In this document: in pieces, positions 3,587-23,784 of the stretch | Layout of the letters: each line of letters begins with the position of its first letter | How positions within the stretch are numbered: the stretch's first letter is position 1 | Assembly (NCBI GenBank): GCA_016177155.1 | Contig: JACOVU010000105.1 | Span: 1-40,251, forward strand | Origin: Candidatus Omnitrophota bacterium | Lineage (GTDB): Bacteria > Omnitrophota > Omnitrophia > Omnitrophales > Danuiimicrobiaceae | Length of the DNA: 40,251 nt | Reading direction: 5' to 3' | Program-made: the position numbers and the translations under genes | The notes under the pieces: generated by a model | Database searches by the model: none | What the model was told of the DNA's origin: nothing | The model's input: only the letters and a program-made list of their open reading frames with translations

Positions 3587-4600
3587 GATAAGTGCTTTCT
3601 CGACCAACTTGAGTGAATTCAAAAACGCGGTGGGAAATGCTTTATTTTGGTAGGCAATATCGAACGCTGTGCCGTGGTCCGGTGACGTTCGAAGATAAGG
3701 AAGTCCAAGCGTCACATTTACGCCTTCTTGAAAGGCAATCATCTTAAAAGGAGCGAGCCCCTGATCGTGATACATAGCGATCACAGCATCGAGCCGACCT
3801 TCGTAAGCATCGTAAAAGATTTGATCGCCCGGAAAAGGCCCTTGGACATCGATTCCTTTCTTCTGAGCTACTTGAATCGCTGGAAGAATAATTTCCTCCT
3901 CCTCTGTTCCGAATTCGCTTCCGTGAGGATTTAAAGCCGACACCCCAATCTTTGGTTTCTTTATCTTGAGGGAGCGTCTCAAGAAGTCATCCGTGAGAGA
4001 AATTTTCGCTATCAGATCCTCCGTTTTAATGGAGTGCGCTACCTTCTTGAGCGGGACATGAATCGTAGCCAATGTTACACGGAGCCGGTTGCTTACGAAC
4101 ATCATCGCAAATTCTTTTATCTTTGCAATTTTTGCCAAGTATTCCGTGTGCCCCAAAAATTTTGGATCGATCAACCGCATCGCGGTTTTATGGATGGGGG
4201 CAGTGACAATGCCCTGCACCAAATCACAAGTCGCCTGATAGGCAGCTACCTTCAAAGCGGAATAGGCCAGTGCTGCATTCCAGCGCGAAACCTCGCCCAC
4301 GGAAAAAACTTCATCTTTGGGTCGGTTCGTGCCAAATACCTGCTCATACAAAGCTTCAGCTTCTTGGGTAATGTCTAGAAAATTGACTTGGCCTTCCTCA
4401 AGGAAAGAACGTTCAAGCGTTGGAACGAGATGCGGCCTGAAATAGATATTGGAACGTTCGCTCGCATACTGAAAGACCTCTTCGCTTCCAATGACCATGT
4501 AGGTCACTTGCACAAGTGACATTTTCTCAAGAGCCTTGATGATCATTTCCGGACCGATCCCGCCAGGATCGCCCATGGTAACAGCAATGATAGGTTTCAT
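3581..4600 (-). CDS. pdxA: 4-hydroxythreonine-4-phosphate dehydrogenase
   Basis: 339 aa with MGDPGGIGPE, GHTEYLA, NPHGSEFG and SPDHGTAFDIA, all PdxA signatures. A 9-nt SD (AAGGAGGTG) lies 5 nt upstream of the ATG. Confidence 0.93.
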   Translation of the reverse strand: MKPIIAVTMGDPGGIGPEMIIKALEKMSLVQVTYMVIGSEEVFQYASERSNIYFRPHLVPTLERSFLEEGQVNFLDITQEAEALYEQVFGTNRPKDEVFSVGEVSRWNAALAYSALKVAAYQATCDLVQGIVTAPIHKTAMRLIDPKFLGHTEYLAKIAKIKEFAMMFVSNRLRVTLATIHVPLKKVAHSIKTEDLIAKISLTDDFLRRSLKIKKPKIGVSALNPHGSEFGTEEEEIILPAIQVAQKKGIDVQGPFPGDQIFYDAYEGRLDAVIAMYHDQGLAPFKMIAFQEGVNVTLGLPYLRTSPDHGTAFDIAYQNKAFPTAFLNSLKLVEKALIS

Positions 4601-4704
4601 CCCACCACCTCCTTGTTTCCCTGAAGGGGAAATTTCATCTGAAATGAAAGAACGTGCTCTGCCCTTTTATCAAAGCACGTTCTTTCCAAGGAGGTGGTTG
4701 GGAT
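4599..4704 (-). repeat. Stop-to-start bridging hairpin, copy A1 (surA-like to pdxA)
   Basis: 4599-4615 pairs with 4687-4704: 17 bp with a 1-nt bulge, plus-strand arms atcccaccacctccttg / caaggaggtggttgggat. The 3' arm on the sense strand ends in the pdxA ATG. The interior holds a 13-bp hairpin (4646-4658 with 4674-4686). Confidence 0.7.
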
Positions 4705-4722
4705 CATGAGGAAGAAAGTAAC

Positions 4723-5743: not shown

Positions 5744-7672
5744 TCAATCCCTCCCTTTTTCCTCTTGAATTGCCTCTTTGAGCATGCGGCAGTAAAGATC
5801 AAACCCCACTTGGTAGATAAATCCGCTCTGCTCGTGCCCTAGCACGTTTCCTGCGCCTCGGATTTCAAGATCTTCCAGCGCAATTTTAAGACCAGAGCCC
5901 AATTCACTGAACCGTTCAATGGCAGCAAGCCTTTTTTCAGCATCTTGGGTCAACACCCAATCTCGGGGAACAAGAAAATAGGCATAAGCCTGACGAGCAG
6001 TATGATAACGCCCCACCCGACCCCGCAATTGATAGAGATCCGAAAGCCCAAACGTGTCTGCACGATTGATGAGGATTGTATTCACATTGGGAATGTCGAT
6101 TCCTGATTCGATGATATTGGTGGAAACCAAACAATCAATCTTACCATCAATAAAATCCGACATCACTTTCTCAAGACTCGTCACGGGAAGTTGACCATGG
6201 GCAACCCCGAATGAGACATGCGGCAACAATTTTTTTAAGTAATTGTAAATCTTCTCGATAGACTCAACGCGATTGTGCACAAAATAAACCTGCCCTTTTC
6301 GCCCAAGCTCCCGCTCCATTGCCTGTTTGATTCGCAAATCATCAAATTCCAGAATTTCCGTAGTGATCGGAAGTCTTTGCTTCGGCGGCGTTTCAATCAC
6401 GGATAAATCGCGAACCCCAAGCAATGAAAGATGAAGCGTTCTCGGAATGGGCGTTGCTGTAAGTGTAAGCATATCAACGGTTTCCCGCAAGAACTTAAGG
6501 CGTTCTTTATGACGTACTCCAAAACGTTGCTCCTCATCTATAATCACAAGTCCCAAATCTTTAAACTCCACATCTTTGGAAAGAAGTCTGTGAGTTCCTA
6601 TAATGACGTCTATCTTTCCTTCTTTAAGCGCTTGAATGACTTTCTTTTGATTTCGTTTATCCAGGTAGCGGGAAAGAAGCTCAATTTCAACGGGCATCTG
6701 GTCCATCCTACGTTTCATCGTTAAATAATGTTGTTCGGCAAGTAACGTAGTTGGCACAAGGACGGCCACCTGTTTCCCCGCAAGGACAGCTTTAAAAGCG
6801 GCTCGAACGGCAACCTCCGTTTTCCCAAATCCAACATCTCCACAAAGCAATCGATCCATCGGCTTCGCCTGTTCCATATCACGTTTGACTTCTTCGGTGG
6901 CGCGTCTCTGATCCGGCGTTTCCTCATAGGAGAACGATTGTTCAAATTCGCGTTGTAACTCGGTGTTCGCTGGAAATTTGAAACCTGGGAGAATGCTTCG
7001 TCTTGCCTGAAGCGCTACCATCTCACGAGCAATCCCGCGAACCGCTAGACGCGTGCGTTCTTTAATCCGAACCCATTCTTTGCTCTGAAGCTTGGTGAGC
7101 TTCGGTTTTTTCCCTTCGAGACCTAGGTAACGCTCTAAAAACTGATGCTGGTCAAAGGGAAGATAAATAATTTCTTGATCGGCATACTCAATGGCAAGGT
7201 GTTTCTTGGGCGCACCTGAAATTTTGAGCGTTTTTGTGCCAAGGAACTTCCCAATTCCATATTCGATATGAACCACATAATCTCCCACCTGAATATCTTC
7301 AAGCTCACCGATAGGCTCAAATTCTTCGAGATGCGCCTTGAGACGCGCTCTTCTCCTTAAGAACGCTTCCGTAACTGGAAGCAGAAAGAGTTCTTCAAAG
7401 GTCGTCAGGCTTTTTCCTTCGTGAAGGGAATAATCACGAATCGTTTCAATGGCATCGAGGTGAAACTGAATTCGGATGGGAGCGCGGTACGAAAGCGGGT
7501 ACACATCAATGATGTGGCCGCGAACTGCATATTGACCGGGTTCTTCGACTACTTTTTCCTCTTGATAACCAAGGGTGTGTAACTTTTGGAGGAGTTCGTC
7601 CTGGGGAATTGACTCCCCGCTTCTTAAGCGGAAAACGTTAAGGTCTAACGGGGCTAAATTTTTTTCAGCCAT
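5744..7672 (-). CDS. mfd: Transcription-repair coupling factor, short form (D2-like module, RNAP-interaction domain and translocase only)
   Basis: 642 aa. Contains CarD/TRCF RID GDYVVHIEYGIGKFLG; helicase motifs GDVGFGKTEVA, DEEQRFGV, TATPIPRT and QLRGRVGR; and the TRG region LGHEQSG. An in-frame stop lies 13 codons upstream of the ATG. Confidence 0.9.
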   Translation of the reverse strand: MAEKNLAPLDLNVFRLRSGESIPQDELLQKLHTLGYQEEKVVEEPGQYAVRGHIIDVYPLSYRAPIRIQFHLDAIETIRDYSLHEGKSLTTFEELFLLPVTEAFLRRRARLKAHLEEFEPIGELEDIQVGDYVVHIEYGIGKFLGTKTLKISGAPKKHLAIEYADQEIIYLPFDQHQFLERYLGLEGKKPKLTKLQSKEWVRIKERTRLAVRGIAREMVALQARRSILPGFKFPANTELQREFEQSFSYEETPDQRRATEEVKRDMEQAKPMDRLLCGDVGFGKTEVAVRAAFKAVLAGKQVAVLVPTTLLAEQHYLTMKRRMDQMPVEIELLSRYLDKRNQKKVIQALKEGKIDVIIGTHRLLSKDVEFKDLGLVIIDEEQRFGVRHKERLKFLRETVDMLTLTATPIPRTLHLSLLGVRDLSVIETPPKQRLPITTEILEFDDLRIKQAMERELGRKGQVYFVHNRVESIEKIYNYLKKLLPHVSFGVAHGQLPVTSLEKVMSDFIDGKIDCLVSTNIIESGIDIPNVNTILINRADTFGLSDLYQLRGRVGRYHTARQAYAYFLVPRDWVLTQDAEKRLAAIERFSELGSGLKIALEDLEIRGAGNVLGHEQSGFIYQVGFDLYCRMLKEAIQEEKGRD

Positions 7673-7720
7673 GACTTTCCATTGAATAACCGTTCGATTA
7701 TTTATCGGAAGTCATGACAG
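7666..7720 (-). repeat. Hairpin repeat, family B, copy B1 (covers the mfd start codon)
   Basis: catgactttcc (7670-7680) pairs with ggaagtcatg (7707-7716). The sequence aligns with copies at 39962-40020 and 40119-40180. Confidence 0.65.
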
Positions 7721-7753
7721 TCCCGAAACCACCTTTTAAGTAAAAAAAATGAA

Positions 7754-8923
7754 TTAATGGAAGTTTCGGGACAGCCATTCGCGAATGCGCGAAATCCCTT
7801 TTTCGATCAGCTCTTCGGAAGTTGCAAAACTAATTCGGATCGCTTGGTCATCTCCAAACGCAACACCAGGGACAACCGCAACTTTCGCCTGGTCGAGCAA
7901 ACCTTCTGAAAACTGAAGGGACTTCATGTTTGTTGCAGAAATACCAACAAAGAGGTAAAACGCCCCGCTCGGCTTAAAGGGTTTGAGTTTTGGAATATCG
8001 CTCACGAGACGGAACATCAGGTCGCGTCTCGTTTCAAAAGCAGCACACATCCGCTTCACATCCGCTTCACCGCTTTTGAGCGCCTCTAAATAGCCTGCTT
8101 GTGCAAACGAAGTGGGATTTGAAGTCGAATGGCTTTGAAGAGAGGCACAGGCTTCCGCAATGGGCTTGTCCGATGCTGAAAATCCAAGACGCCAGCCAGT
8201 CATCGCATAGCTTTTGCTCGCTCCACCAACGGTAATCACCCGATCAAAAATGCTGGGATCGAGCGCTCCAATGGAGTGGTGTCTCTGGCCGTCGAAAAGA
8301 AGCTTTTCATAAATTTCATCGCTCAGAATAAAAAAGGAATGCTTTCTCGCAATCTGGACGATTTCCATTAAAAGCTCTCTCGATAGAACCGCCCCTGTAG
8401 GATTGGAGGGTGAATTCAGAATCAGGAGTTTTGTTTTTTTTGTAACGAGTTTCTCAAGCGCTTTTGGAGAAGGGACATAACCATCCTTAAGTTCCGTTCT
8501 CAAAATCACGGATTTTCCACCCGCTAAAGTAACCATCTCAGGGTAGCTTAACCAGTAAGGAGAAAGAAGGATGACCTCATCCCCTTCTTCGATAAGCACT
8601 TGCAACATATTGTAGATGGAGTGTTTTGCACCACAGGAAACGACAATTTGTTCGGGACTGTAATTCAGCTGGTTTTCGCGGGAAAGCTTCTCGGCGATCG
8701 CCTTCCTCAATTCCAAAGTACCGGAAGCAGGAGTGTACTTGGTAAACCCCTTCGCGAGGGAATTAATGGCAGCCTTTTTAATTGGTTCAGGAGTGTCAAA
8801 ATCAGGTTCGCCTGCGGAAAAAGAAACGACATCTACACCCTCTTGCTTCAGACGTTTTGCCTTGGCCTCGATCGCAAGAGTGAGCGAAGGAGTAACGCTT
8901 CGAATGCGTTTGGCGAGATTCAT
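7754..8923 (-). CDS. Aspartate/aromatic aminotransferase (class I)
   Basis: 389 aa with NSPSNPTGAV and SKSYAMTGWRLGF (PLP lysine), typical of AspC-type enzymes. Confidence 0.9.
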   Translation of the reverse strand: MNLAKRIRSVTPSLTLAIEAKAKRLKQEGVDVVSFSAGEPDFDTPEPIKKAAINSLAKGFTKYTPASGTLELRKAIAEKLSRENQLNYSPEQIVVSCGAKHSIYNMLQVLIEEGDEVILLSPYWLSYPEMVTLAGGKSVILRTELKDGYVPSPKALEKLVTKKTKLLILNSPSNPTGAVLSRELLMEIVQIARKHSFFILSDEIYEKLLFDGQRHHSIGALDPSIFDRVITVGGASKSYAMTGWRLGFSASDKPIAEACASLQSHSTSNPTSFAQAGYLEALKSGEADVKRMCAAFETRRDLMFRLVSDIPKLKPFKPSGAFYLFVGISATNMKSLQFSEGLLDQAKVAVVPGVAFGDDQAIRISFATSEELIEKGISRIREWLSRNFH

Positions 8924-12205: not shown

Positions 12206-12319
12206 TTATCCCTGTCTCTGTTTATGTTTTGGGTTACTGCACACAACGTAAACCACACGCTTACGCCGTACAATTTTACAATGTTCACAAATTCGTCTGA
12301 CTGAACTGCGTACTTTCAT
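12206..12319 (-). CDS. rpmJ: 50S ribosomal protein L36 (not in the ORF track; translated by hand)
   Basis: The minus strand reads ATG AAA GTA CGC AGT ... CAG GGA TAA, which gives [37 protein letters not shown] (37 aa, C-x2-C...C-x4-H zinc motif). It lies in the canonical position between infA and rpsM. Confidence 0.93.
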
Positions 12320-12410
12320 CCCCCACCACTTTCCAACTATTAATATAATAATTTAAAATTAACTTCCTTTTACGACGTTACAACGTCCCTCACCGAAAGT
12401 GGTGGGGGAT
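12318..12410 (-). repeat. Stop-to-start bridging hairpin, copy A2 (infA to rpmJ)
   Basis: Perfect 16-bp helix, 12318-12333 with 12395-12410. Sense strand: TGA-TCCCCCACCACTTTC ... GAAAGTGGTGGGGG-ATG. 61-nt AT-rich loop. Confidence 0.8.
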
Positions 12411-12625
12411 CAAATTCGATACGTAATTCTTCCCCGCGTCAGGTCATAGGGAGAAAGTTCCACTTTCACTCGATCCCCTGAAAGAATTCGGATGTAATGC
12501 ATCCTCATCTTGCCCGAAATATGGGCCAGCACCTTATGACCGTTATCGAGCTCGACCCGAAACATCGCATTCGGAAGCGGCTCAATGACAACTCCCTCTA
12601 CCTCAATGGCATCTTCTTTTGACAC
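12410..12625 (-). CDS. infA: Translation initiation factor IF-1
   Basis: 71 aa, [41 protein letters not shown].... The GTG start overlaps the map stop by 1 nt. Confidence 0.97.
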
Positions 12626-13413
12626 TAGACCATACTCACTTGATAGTTAACGTTCTCTTCACATTCCTGTGACCCTGTTAAATTTTCAGGACCGTGCTCT
12701 GTCAGTACAATGGTATCTTCATAATGCGCTGCCAATTGACGGTCTCGAGTCACCACTGTCCAGGCGTCATCCAAAATGTCAACTTCCCAACTCCCTGCGG
12801 CAACCATGGGTTCAATAGCAAGGACAAGTCCTGCTTCAAGCTTAGGTCCATGCCCAGGTTTCCCAAAATTAGGCACTTGTGGATCTTCGTGCATCGCTCG
12901 TCCAATGCCGTGTCCTACAAAATCACGAATCACTGAAAAACCATGAGATTCAACGTAATCTTGAATCTTGTGCGAAAGATCGCCTATCCGCGCACCCAAC
13001 TTCATCTGACTCATCCCCACATAAAGGGCACGCCGAGTTACTTCCATAAGTTCCAGCGCTTCCTCGCTTGCTTGGCCAATGGACCAAGTGCGTGCGGCAT
13101 CGCTGACATAACCTTCGTAAATCAATCCGATATCAAGACTTAAAAGATCCCCTTCATTCAATCTCCGCTTGGAGGGAATCCCATGCACCACTTCCTCATT
13201 CATCGAGGTGCAGATACAAGCAGGATAACCGCGATACCCCTTGAACGCTGGCTTTGCCTTCTGTGCTTGAATGAGCCGCTCGGCTTTGGCATCAATTTCA
13301 AGGGTCGTCATTGCCGGTTTAATGAACCGCTTTAATTCTTCGAAAACAATCTTGAGCCTTTGAGCAGCTTCCCGCATGATCTCGATTTCACGCTTGGATT
13401 TCAAAGAAATCAT
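12625..13413 (-). CDS. map: Methionine aminopeptidase type I
   Basis: 262 aa with [33 protein letters not shown] and EPMV. Confidence 0.95.
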
Positions 13414-13462
13414 CCCCCACCACTTTCATTTTCCCCACCTTTTCCAAAAAGTGGTGGGGGAT
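13412..13462 (-). repeat. Stop-to-start bridging hairpin, copy A3 (adk to map)
   Basis: Perfect 15-bp helix, 13412-13426 with 13448-13462. The 21-nt loop contains a third partial arm (ccccacc). Confidence 0.8.
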
Positions 13463-14115
13463 CATCGAACTTGAAGCTCACGAGCTAGTTCTGCTTGAAG
13501 GGGTTCAATCTCCAAATCTCCATTCACCACCTTAAGCAAGTTTCGCGTCCCATAAAATTCAATGAGCGGAGCGGTTTGCTTTTGATACACTTCAAGCCGC
13601 TTCCGAATGGTTTCGGGCGTATCATCCTTACGCTGAACCAAAGAACTGCCACACACATCGCAAATCCCCTCCCGTTTGGGTGGGATATTGCGAATGTGGT
13701 AATTCGCTCCACAATTCGGACAAGCACGTCTGCCTGAAAGACGATCGATCACCACTCGCTCAGAAGTACCGAATTCAAGTGCAAAATCGAGCGGCTTCCT
13801 CGCCTGCTTCAAAAAGGCCTCGAGTGATTCAGCTTGTTCCACCGTCCGAGGAAAACCGTCCAAAATAAATCCATTTCGAACGTCATCTGATTGGAGTCGT
13901 TCGCTCACCATCTCAACCACAAGCTCATCGGGAACTAATTTCCCACTGTCAATGAACGATTTTGCACGCTTCCCGAGCGCCGTCCCTTTCTGAATCTGAG
14001 ATCTCAAAAGATCTCCCGTCGAAATATGGGGAATCGAGTGTCGCTCGCTCAAAATCTTGGCATGCGTTCCTTTGCCTGCCCCCGGTGGTCCTAAAAGAAC
14101 AATTCGAAGCGACAT
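13462..14115 (-). CDS. adk: Adenylate kinase (Cys4 zinc lid)
   Basis: GPPGAGKGT P-loop; the lid is CPNCGANYH...CDVCGSSL. Confidence 0.96.
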   Translation of the reverse strand: MSLRIVLLGPPGAGKGTHAKILSERHSIPHISTGDLLRSQIQKGTALGKRAKSFIDSGKLVPDELVVEMVSERLQSDDVRNGFILDGFPRTVEQAESLEAFLKQARKPLDFALEFGTSERVVIDRLSGRRACPNCGANYHIRNIPPKREGICDVCGSSLVQRKDDTPETIRKRLEVYQKQTAPLIEFYGTRNLLKVVNGDLEIEPLQAELARELQVR

Positions 14116-18579: not shown

Positions 18580-18888
18580 TTAGATAATTTCGTTACACTT
18601 CTTACAAATACGCTGCTTTGTACCATCGGACAAAAATTGATAGCCCGTACGAGTCACTTTGGAACAGCGAGGGCAAACCAGCTGAACATTGGAAGATTGC
18701 ATTTTGCCTTCCACCTGCGAGATCCCGCCCTTTGGATTCTGCTGGCTTGGGCGAAGATAAACTTTCATGTAATTCAGTCCTTCAATGAGAATACGGCTTT
18801 CTGACGGAAACACACGGAGCACTTTCCCTTTTTTCCCCCGCTCCTTCCCGGTAAGCACCGTAACCATATCCCCTTTTTTAAGTTTCAT
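18580..18888 (-). CDS. rplX: 50S ribosomal protein L24 (C-terminal CxxC...CxxC)
   Basis: MKLKKGDMVTVLTGKERGKKGKVLRV... (KOW motif). The start is trimmed to the ATG at 18886-18888; the ORF-track TTG extension runs through the hairpin element. Confidence 0.94.
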   Translation of the reverse strand: MKLKKGDMVTVLTGKERGKKGKVLRVFPSESRILIEGLNYMKVYLRPSQQNPKGGISQVEGKMQSSNVQLVCPRCSKVTRTGYQFLSDGTKQRICKKCNEII

Positions 18889-18991
18889 CCCCCACCACTT
18901 TCTTATACACTGAATTATAAATATGACGTTTGTTTTCAATTAATGACGCAAGAACCGATATCAAACTTATTTTTAGAAAGTGGTGGGGGAT
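18887..18991 (-). repeat. Stop-to-start bridging hairpin, copy A4 (rplN to rplX)
   Basis: Perfect 17-bp helix, 18887-18903 with 18975-18991. 71-nt AT-rich loop. Confidence 0.8.
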
Positions 18992-18996
18992 CATGA

Positions 18997-22754: not shown

Positions 22755-23030
22755 TTACGTTAATTCAATCTTGTGGCCTTCTTTTAAAGTCACGATGGCT
22801 TTTTTCCAATCGGGAGTTTGTCCGGGCTGATACCGCACCCGTTTCCATTTCCCGCCGGTCACCATCGTATTGACTTTGGCCACTTTCACGTTAAAAATCC
22901 GTTCGACCGCCTCTCGAATTTCATGCTTCTGGGCGTGGGGGTGAACTCGGAAAAAGTATTTATGCGCTTTCTCCTGCTTTGTCCCCTTTTCGGTCACGAG
23001 TGGTTCTTGAAGCACATCATAAAGATTCAT
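22755..23030 (-). CDS. rplW: 50S ribosomal protein L23
   Basis: [16 protein letters not shown].... The ATG at 23028-23030 is preferred over the ORF-track GTG at 23039, which lies inside the hairpin arm. Confidence 0.93.
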
Positions 23031-23119
23031 CCCAACCACCTGTTTTGCTGCCGCAGGCAGATTTTTTTACAAACTTCAGAAAAAAATTGGCCCTTTGGGC
23101 CAAAAGCAGGTGGTGGGAT
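23029..23119 (-). repeat. Stop-to-start bridging hairpin, copy A5 (rplD to rplW), variant arms
   Basis: 23029-23047 pairs with 23101-23119, with two single-nt bulges. Sense strand: TGA-TCCCACCACCTGCTTTTG ... CAAAACAGGTGGTTGGG-ATG. Confidence 0.7.
23080..23103 (-). terminator. Intrinsic-terminator-like hairpin inside copy A5, between rplD and rplW
   Basis: The sense strand reads TTGGCCC-AAA-GGGCCAA followed by TTTTTTT. The mirror-image hairpin ctgcc-gca-ggcag plus a T7 run at 23048-23068 reads as a terminator on the plus strand. Confidence 0.4.
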
Positions 23120-23784
23120 CACGATTTCACTCCTTGAGCCACAAGCTCGGGTACAAGCAAAGCCCGCTTTTCCAAAATCGGAACGGCTTTGGTTTCAATC
23201 AAAAGTTTTCTGCGTCTTTGAATATGATAAGCATTAACATCTCGCGCGAGCCGAATAGAAAATAGTTCTTTTACGTTGCGAGATGCCCGCTTCAGATTTT
23301 CATCGAGCGACTCTACAATAAAGAGCGTTCTTGAGTCTTTGAGCCCAAGCGCTTCAATGACCCCAATCAATTCCTTGGTTTTCGCCTGTTTCAAGTTGGC
23401 ATCTTCTAAAAGAAGAAGGTCGTTCTCCTGATTCTTAAGACTTAAAGCAGAAACCAAAGCGGCCTGCCTCATGCTGCTCGGAAGATCCGTATCGTAATCT
23501 CTGGGATGGGGGCCAAAGGTTGTACCGCCGCCTCTCCAAATGGGAGAACGCCTTGAGGAATGGCGTGCACGTCCCGTGCCCTTTTGTTTCCAAGGTTTTT
23601 TCCCGCCGCCGCGCACCTCGGCGCGTTCCTTCGTGTCATGCGTTCCACGCCTTTGATTGCCGGCATAAGCGGTCAAAACGAGTTGAAGCAAACGCTGGTT
23701 CACAGGAGCTTGGAACACCGAATCATTCAGCTCCATTTCTCCGGCTTTTTTACCATCCTTTTGATAAATAATTGATTTCGCCAT
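23119..23784 (-). CDS. rplD: 50S ribosomal protein L4
   Basis: 221 aa, ...KPWKQKGTGRARHSSRRSPIWRGGGTTFGP.... Confidence 0.97.
   Translation of the reverse strand: MAKSIIYQKDGKKAGEMELNDSVFQAPVNQRLLQLVLTAYAGNQRRGTHDTKERAEVRGGGKKPWKQKGTGRARHSSRRSPIWRGGGTTFGPHPRDYDTDLPSSMRQAALVSALSLKNQENDLLLLEDANLKQAKTKELIGVIEALGLKDSRTLFIVESLDENLKRASRNVKELFSIRLARDVNAYHIQRRRKLLIETKAVPILEKRALLVPELVAQGVKS

Follow-up and report, generated by a model that had tools for sequence, protein, structure and literature searches.

Correia elements and Rickettsia palindromic elements (RPEs) were reviewed among the prokaryotic MITEs in 2024 (PMC10969869), and bacterial MITEs are known to affect the expression of genes and the processing of their mRNA (PMC10969869, PMC3184786). 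RPEs are palindromic selfish repeats which are tolerated in essential genes (PMC10969869). REP palindromes carry a characteristic tag, GTAG or CGTC, on one of their ends (PMC3733652). REP and REPIN sequences with their RAYT are extragenic palindromes, often located just past stop codons or within operons and clustered with other hairpin repeats. Correia elements of Neisseria, like ERIC and RUP, are short and non-coding, carry terminal inverted repeats and a short duplication, occur in many, mostly intergenic copies and form hairpins when transcribed. REPs and rRNA intervening sequences are reported to be involved in the processing or stabilising of transcripts, as are the Correia elements. The IS5 family (IS1031 and IS5 groups) and PIF/Harbinger-Tourist elements duplicate 3 bp of the TNA type or 4 bp of a YTAR-like type at the target. 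In rpmI-rplT and phage MS2, a helix hides the downstream start codon and its Shine-Dalgarno sequence (SD), and upstream translation opens it. The five hairpins described here resemble each of these systems in part and are very probably copies of a non-autonomous palindromic MITE-like element of 49-104 nt with a TNA-type target duplication.

The hairpins are located in a stretch of 40,251 nt from a Candidatus Omnitrophota bacterium (contig JACOVU010000105.1), which was analyzed as a whole and is called the window in the following. Its L4 and PdxA proteins have their best matches in metagenome-assembled genomes of Omnitrophota. The original prediction had placed five minus-strand hairpins at junctions between a stop codon and the next start codon, and all of them were found, each where it had been placed. 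The elements and their flanking repeats are the following.

E1: 12319..12409 (91 nt), minus strand, infA-rpmJ junction, adjoining the infA stop codon TGA (12410-12412), with the arms TCCCCCACCACTTTC and GAAAGTGGTGGGGGA
E1 TGA direct repeat: left copy 12410-12412 (the infA stop codon), right copy 12316..12318, minus strand
rpmJ start codon at E1: ATG from the terminal A (12319) and TG (12318-12317), minus strand
E2: 13413..13461 (49 nt), minus strand, adk-map junction, adjoining the adk stop codon TGA (13462-13464)
E2 TGA repeat: 13462-13464 and 13410-13412, minus strand; map ATG from the terminal A (13413) and TG
E3: 18888..18990 (103 nt), minus strand, within the ATGA of the rplX start, 6 nt past the rplN stop codon
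E3 TGA repeat: 18991-18993 and 18885-18887, minus strand
E4: 23030..23118 (89 nt), minus strand, variant-arm subfamily, rplD-rplW junction, adjoining the rplD stop codon TGA (23119-23121)
E4 right TGA copy: 23027-23029, minus strand; the terminal A (23030) turns the ancestral GTG start into ATG
E5: 4600..4703 (104 nt), minus strand, variant-arm subfamily, junction of a surA-like gene and pdxA, within the ATGA of the pdxA start
E5 TGA repeat: 4704-4706 and 4597-4599, minus strand

On the coding strand, all five copies read TGA-[TCCC...GGGA]-TGA, so that each element starts with T and finishes with A. The downstream start codon consists in all five of the element's last A and the next TG. It had been claimed that this ATG is the real start codon with A at +4, and this was seen in every copy; the proposed arm offsets from the upstream stop (0, 0, 0, 5 and 18 nt) also hold. 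The terminal inverted repeats comprise 14-17 bp and are of the form TCCCCCACCACTTT...AAAGTGGTGGGGGA, or TCCC(A)ACCACCT in a second subfamily. Terminal inverted repeats are typical for MITEs, and those found here are perfect over 14-16 bp in E1-E3 (internal stems of 15, 14 and 16 bp, with one extra A-T pair outside) and near-perfect in E4 and E5. The latter two have the variant arms in common, with a one-base bulge located on opposite sides in each copy. These arm differences had been read as co-variation, but the arms of E4 and E5 represent the second subfamily and not a compensatory change at a conserved site.

Folding of the junctions, which had been recommended as a check, gave strong predicted hairpins for the elements (-33 to -63 kcal/mol; z-scores of -3.5 to -8 versus shuffles). 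An inverted-repeat scan of the window placed 4 of the elements among the nine longest pairs. The two-arm pattern matches 3 elements in the window and nothing in 100 shuffles, and the single-arm pattern has 8 matches where 2.3 are expected. The region is 98% coding. Besides the five elements, non-coding DNA amounts to 706 nt, and the elements constitute 38% of all non-coding DNA (positions 35 to 39956), with 5 non-coding copies of 49-104 nt per 40 kb. Only two other spacers of the ribosomal cluster exceed 26 nt, namely rpsD-rpoA (97 nt) and rplL-rpoB (115 nt), exactly those named by the original prediction. The interiors of the five copies are mutually unrelated, as had been noted from the sequence; in this respect the three canonical copies of the window are atypical of a single MITE family that was amplified recently. 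Two terminator-like hairpins are found in the interior of E4, on both strands, and a scan for promoter-like sites shows no enrichment inside the elements.

The junctions were compared with those of related genomes. Selection on the helix rather than on an inserted sequence had been suggested, and this is not supported for this lineage, as the relatives have no such helices, among them L175, in which L4 is 96% identical. Over the orthologous junctions compared, the helices are missing from seven or more relatives. L175 shows 91-97% DNA identity to the window on either side of E4. Its alignment blocks stop at window positions 23119 and 23029 and overlap by exactly 3 query bases, TGA, and its rplD-rplW junction is a plain overlap, cgGTGAatc, with no element. 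From this break it follows that the insert is the 89-nt T...A element, that the duplication comprises 3 bp and that the A of the ATG is derived from the element. The other relatives compared are more distant (70-82% protein identity). The rplD-rplW junction is an empty ATGA overlap in L176, L177 and L178. At rplN-rplX, L178 reads TGATCATGAaac, which equals the window sequence minus E3, and L176 has a 2-nt spacer with no element. An empty ATGA overlap is also present at adk-map in L095, L176, L181 and L182. In L181 and L182, the surA stop codon TAG is directly followed by ATGAAACC, and the hairpin is absent.

A target duplication, as is characteristic for MITEs, is thus visible from filled and empty sites, the latter being available for E2, E3, E4 and E5. 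Since the relatives do not carry the elements, the insertions are recent. Judged from these alignments, the hairpins are insertions and not conserved regulatory helices. For E1, we infer a one-step insertion into a TTGA overlap only indirectly, because the infA-rpmJ junction of L096, L181 and L182 carries spacers of 14-49 nt, without the hairpin; the simple TTGA overlap which a single-step insertion requires is present in none of these three relatives. One of the hypotheses of the original prediction, a small palindromic mobile element, is supported by the filled and empty sites and by multi-copy families, although with a duplication of 3 bp (TGA) and not of 4 bp. The same junction with and without insert also offers a natural experiment on what a stop-start helix of -30 to -60 kcal/mol does to coupling.

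For identification of further copies, an exact scan for TCCCCCACCAC...GTGGTGGGGGA was applied to 185,579 species genomes, one per bacterial or archaeal species. The two-arm pattern was found at 94 loci, mostly in Omnitrophota and CPR bacteria; about a dozen of them are GC-rich or Clostridia matches of other nature. Among the CPR/Patescibacteria, carriers in the scan are Moranbacteria, Parcubacteria and Saccharibacteria. The arms common to the families comprise 11-15 nt and usually extend to TCCCCCACCACTTT(T); part of their conservation reflects ascertainment, since retrieval of the loci depended on exact matches to the arms. The arms of subfamily B (TCCCAACCACCT) are absent from the loci retrieved by the scan. 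The Omnitrophota draft genome MHFT01 contains at least 17 loci with families of 54 and 70 nt, and two other genomes have families of 51 nt. The element is thus small, non-coding and multi-copy like other MITEs. Interiors are alike within the family of one genome and unrelated between genomes. Several Omnitrophota carry the element in the midst of further small hairpin repeats.

In CPR bacteria, copies were also found inside genes for structural RNAs. One lies in the RNase P RNA of L048 and two in that of L078, and the 23S rRNA is affected in L086 and L025; peripheral helices are the sites in both kinds of RNA. In L075, the hairpin stands in place of a tRNA anticodon arm, and in L024 it occupies a position enclosing tRNA-Val. 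A P-type ATPase gene of two Moranbacteria (L036 and L061) contains an in-frame element which is translated as SPTTF...KVVGD, with the ORF kept open and domains on both sides. The flanks of this orthologous site are about 88% identical and the arms identical, and the interiors are essentially unalignable. Homologous interiors are found at another orthologous site, which adjoins a DnaA box. These observations suggest an exchange of interiors, or renewed hits at a site, with the arms kept. Compared by behaviour, these copies in an ORF, RNase P RNA, 23S rRNA and tRNA resemble RPEs. However, RPEs are about 100-150 bp long, occur in Rickettsia alone and lack a clear target duplication, and the five window copies lie between genes, unlike RPEs inside genes. 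For annotation this means that loose junctions or strong hairpins in operons, rRNA, RNase P RNA and ORFs of Omnitrophota and CPR bacteria can be this repeat and not a regulatory structure.

Flanking direct repeats of 3-4 bp are present at 21 of 42 Omnitrophota copies, in comparison to 2.9% of random positions in the same loci. The most frequent types in Omnitrophota are TCA/TGA (n=11, including E5 after correction of its limits) and TTA/TAA (n=5), and CTAG, CTAA, TTAG, GTAG, CCAG and TAAA occur once each. Because the repeat differs among copies of one family, it is derived from the target. A clean direct repeat is missing from half of the Omnitrophota copies and from most CPR copies, and eight copies following a TAG stop show NNAG on the far side and not a plain TAG repeat. 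The duplications (TGA/TCA, TAA/TTA and NTAG) differ from the TA of Correia, ERIC and RUP, and so do the ends. Further differences from these elements are the lack of a known parent insertion sequence, the unrelated interiors, the span over Omnitrophota and CPR, and the rebuilding of stop and ATG by T...A ends together with a duplicated TGA. The TNA and NTAG duplications are similar to those in ISfinder descriptions of the IS5 family and to PIF/Harbinger-Tourist, but the ends of IS5-family members are typically GG/GA, compared to TCCCCC... here, and no transposase was found in the retrieved loci. Two other models, a TA duplication (IS630- or Correia-like) and an inverted repeat lengthened by a constant TAG-...-CTA, were also considered and rejected, as the flanks vary in every combination and the TGA/TGA of the window is target-derived.

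The copies are strongly associated with stop codons. Stops were taken as genuine where they end an ORF of 60 codons or more, on the basis of crude gene calls, and 17 of the 40 canonical Omnitrophota copies abut such a stop with zero gap. Twelve of the 40 are nested in larger hairpin clusters, and about 61% of the other 28 abut a genuine stop. The neutral expectation is 8.2%, which is the share of genuine stops among those TNA/TAG sites of these loci that lie outside the called genes, with the same crude calls. The enrichment (about 61% vs about 8%, from crude ORF calls) exceeds what a trinucleotide preference alone explains. Six of the 40 copies provide the A of an ATG opening an ORF of at least 60 codons, or 7 when the 37-codon rpmJ is counted. 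The arrangement TGA-[element]-ATG is also found at purS-purQ (L018) and at ABC permease-glmU (L037), and in L030, a different genome, the element follows the rplA stop at rplA-rplJ. The window offers roughly 18 NTGA starts, besides 11 TGA stops and 28 further TGA/TCA sites between genes, and all five copies are inserted in a TGA that overlaps a start codon. In our reading, the triplets targeted coincide with those of stop codons, and it is insertion at the stop or at the start overlap that disturbs nothing; an extra insertion preference or a benefit may also contribute.

The G-rich 3' arm resembles a Shine-Dalgarno sequence. Its predicted pairing with the anti-SD is moderate to strong, at -7.8 to -18 kcal/mol, for which a canonical 16S tail was assumed that may differ from the tail of the host. 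With the same assumption, a canonical 3' arm reaches -7.8 kcal/mol with the core only and -10 to -12 with the extended tail, and the 3' arm of E5, which holds AAGGAGGUG, reaches -14.5 to -18 kcal/mol. The latter arm also contains a perfect Shine-Dalgarno sequence, AAGGAGGTG. Among 39 genes, the five genes behind the elements rank 1, 4, 5, 6 and 10 in anti-SD pairing with the extended tail and 1, 8, 9, 10 and 14 with the core only; ordinary ribosome-binding sites of window genes are of the GGAGG type. The 5' arm begins 0-19 nt past the upstream stop, and pairing is predicted for the start codon together with some 14 nt in front of it. The former SDs, AAGGAG before the GTG of rplW (seen in L175) and AGGTGG before rplX, are shifted about 90 nt upstream. 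Since they were moved away, the element probably supplies the working ribosome-binding site of the downstream genes.

The element represents a new family of a known kind, the small palindromic mobile elements, and rebuilds the stop and the start which it separates. When it lands in a stop/start overlap (NTGA) or in a start codon's ATGA, the upstream TGA stop is kept on the left side, and on the right side A and TG form an ATG that leaves the frame of the downstream gene as it was; at rplD-rplW, GTG became ATG in this way. Both signals are preserved because the element runs from T to A and the TGA triplet is duplicated. Copies may persist at such junctions because insertion there should cost the host almost nothing, while insertion at most other TNA sites would be lethal or harmful in a region that is 98% coding. 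A transposon of this type can thus inhabit the most compact essential operons, as its ends and the target duplication regenerate the interrupted signals, and at rplD-rplW the start codon was even upgraded. At the RNA level, we infer unwinding, coupling and SD use in the following way. The 3' arm would provide an SD-like sequence 4-9 nt ahead of the new ATG, which the C-rich 5' arm would mask in the mRNA. On terminating at the neighbouring UGA, a ribosome would open the foot of the helix and expose the AUG, and the downstream cistron would remain translationally coupled, similar to the ancestral overlap.

Judged from the TNA and NTAG duplications, the mobilising enzyme may be a DDE transposase with a target choice like that of IS5/IS1031 or PIF/Harbinger. 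An autonomous element or a transposase with matching ends was not found in about 1.7 Mb of retrieved loci, and the genes between paired copies include no transposases; they are glmU, a gene for an unannotated protein, and housekeeping genes of the purS/purQ type. The element may be adapted to junctions more closely, as a selfish hairpin with ends evolved for harmless boundary insertion, a portable SD in the 3' arm and a 5' arm mimicking the 16S 3' tail; we put this forward tentatively and consider it rather less probable than not. If it holds, the mimicry of the 5' arm, which also equals 11 nt of the tRNA-Tyr 3' end, masks the SD until the upstream ribosome comes. The arms would then be intact across Omnitrophota and CPR because they are recognised by some conserved partner, either a transposase or a factor of the host, and the interiors would be swapped freely, with RNase P RNA, rRNA, tRNA and ORFs colonised as well.

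A host regulatory device for translational coupling, with a C-rich arm that masks an SD-like sequence and the AUG and with mobile origin as a secondary matter (exaptation), is unlikely in our view. It would fit the location of the stop and start codons, which stand at the foot of the helix in five of five copies, the predicted anti-SD pairing of the 3' arm (perfect in E5) and the strong enrichment right after genuine stops in several genomes, and also the identical arms with different interiors at the ATPase site of two CPR genomes. However, the hairpins are missing from every relative examined, including the one with 96% identical L4, so that these essential operons can be expressed without them. 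Moreover, the ancestral ATGA and GTGA overlaps already couple, and elsewhere most copies precede a separate SD and start codon 18-37 nt downstream. The masking helices of rpmI-rplT and phage MS2 are conserved host or phage structures, in contrast to the recent insertions here, for which a similar hiding of start and SD, and coupling, are putative. RNase III-type processing sites, or hairpins protecting 3' ends, which split or stabilise the long ribosomal-protein transcripts, are very doubtful as the reason for the stems. The duplexes are perfect over 15-17 bp and lengthened by flanking pairs, the same hairpin occurs in 23S rRNA and RNase P RNA of CPR bacteria, where it takes up peripheral helices, and cleavage of Correia elements by RNase III is documented (PMC10969869). 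Nevertheless, the stems are shorter than the roughly 20 bp usually preferred by RNase III, their positions show no tie to known processing sites, and the relatives do without them.

A single-strand DNA hairpin repeat, of the REP/REPIN type or derived from IS200/IS605 and moved by an HUH (Y1) enzyme, would explain the flanking TGA as a cleavage or target motif with no true duplication, and it would account for copies that each fold into a single long and perfect hairpin, the interior of which is free. The arms kept across phyla with variable interiors, the BIME-like clusters in which the element stands amid other small hairpin repeats in several Omnitrophota, the rarity of duplications at CPR copies and the lack of a DDE partner in the retrieved loci point in the same direction. 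We nevertheless regard this origin as quite improbable, since the flanks vary within one family (TCA, CTAG, CTAA, CCAG and GTAG) and hence derive from the target. In contrast to REP palindromes, which are tagged with GTAG or CGTC (PMC3733652), the ends here are TCCCCC...GGGGGA with neither tag at the foot, the loops are far longer and more variable, and no RAYT gene was seen in the retrieved loci. A tblastn search of the retrieved locus fragments with an IS200-like TnpA gave no match, which is a weak test. Thus, insertion of a MITE-like element remains the best explanation, and translational coupling and cleavage by RNase III are plausible as consequences of the insertions.

Several other assignments were examined. 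Intrinsic terminators were rejected, as the stems of the whole elements are followed by AUGA... and no U tract, and terminator-like hairpins occur only inside E4. A bacterial SECIS was rejected as well, because infA, adk and rplD normally end with this UGA, located at the same place in relatives, and the next ATG opens a separate conserved gene. Rfam gave 0 matches in the window at gathering score, and a lenient search found only sub-threshold generic hairpins (miRNA precursor). Literature searches by sequence and topic found no description of such an element, which agrees with the earlier statement that it is not a described one. An exact look-up of the rpmJ product returned no record, and among viral contigs two GC-rich chance matches were seen, with no link to phages.

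The Clostridia matches of the scan belong to the 3' end of tRNA-Tyr (TCCCCCACCA), of which a partial copy is repeated in inverted orientation beyond a terminator. The arm of the element equals 11 nt of this tRNA-Tyr 3' end.

The direct repeats that flank the element, TGA in the window, are read as a 3-bp target duplication. In the Omnitrophota draft genome MHFT01, eight copies follow a TAG stop (L040, L042, L077, L087, L088, L013, L030, L070), and all of these carry NNAG on the opposite side (CGAG, TGAG, CTAG or GTAG) instead of simply repeating TAG. A plain 3-bp duplication does not account for this regular pattern.

In the window, the interior of E4, the variant-arm copy between rplD and rplW, contains two terminator-like hairpins, namely GGCCCAAAGGGCC (then T7) and CTGCCGCAGGCAG (then AT7), both in mid-operon within the S10 operon. 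An additional inverted repeat, outside the family, runs across the end of the gene at 7754-8923.
23087-23103 (-) and 23048-23060 (+): terminator-like hairpins of E4, one per strand
7714-7778: separate 23-nt inverted repeat, ATGACAGTCCCGAAACCACCTTT / AATGGAAGTTTCGGGACAGCCAT, 78% complementary

Different small palindromic repeats were found in L182, a relative (PdxA 77% identical), at 2190-2240, 2740-2945, 3930-4170 and 5795-5950. They occupy the same ribosomal-operon junctions (infA-rpmJ, rpsM-rpsK, rpsD-rpoA and after rplQ), and several of them adjoin TGA stops. Examples are GTCATTCCCGC...GCGGGAATGAC, GTCATCCTGTCCC...GGGACAGGATGAC and TGACC...GGTCA.

In twelve loci of other Omnitrophota (L008, L026, L031, L033, L038, L045, L046, L053, L063, L065, L074, L080) the hairpin forms the centre of a larger repeat with extended inverted flanks, G(T/G)SCGAAYTTA...TAAGTTCGG. 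The distance to the gene on either side is about 55 nt, and AACTTAC...GTAAGTT hairpins occur as neighbours of the element. These composite repeats resemble BIME-like clusters.

Outside the Omnitrophota, the hairpin was detected at the following loci:
L036 2525-2589 and L061 6046-6113: P-type cation ATPase gene, Moranbacteria
L048 1414-1457, L078 4268-4330 and 4519-4645, L086 5159-5217, L025 206-288, L075 2071-2119, L024 272-374: structured-RNA genes, CPR bacteria
L039 4981-5063, L052 149-234, L073 4320-4405: orthologous copy in three CPR genomes

In the ATPase the hairpin lies in frame in the nucleotide-binding domain of ORFs of 928 aa (L036) and 956 aa (L061) and is translated as ...SPTTFSSGLRPGSFADEKVVGD...; arms and flanks are conserved between the two loci and the interiors are unalignable. 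In RNase P RNA and 23S rRNA of CPR bacteria it takes peripheral positions. It also stands in place of the anticodon arm in a tRNA-like gene, and one copy surrounds an entire tRNA-Val. The orthologous copy is directly adjoined by a consensus DnaA box (TTATCCACA) in all three genomes, and the site may be an origin or dnaA promoter region.

In Oscillospiraceae/Clostridia (L007, L011, L015, L029, L058, L060, L066, L083, L089, L094), the 3' end of tRNA-Tyr, TCCCCCACCA, is identical to the arm of the element. A terminator hairpin stands downstream of these tRNA-Tyr genes, and after it part of the tRNA 3' end recurs as an inverted copy, which results in long palindromes.
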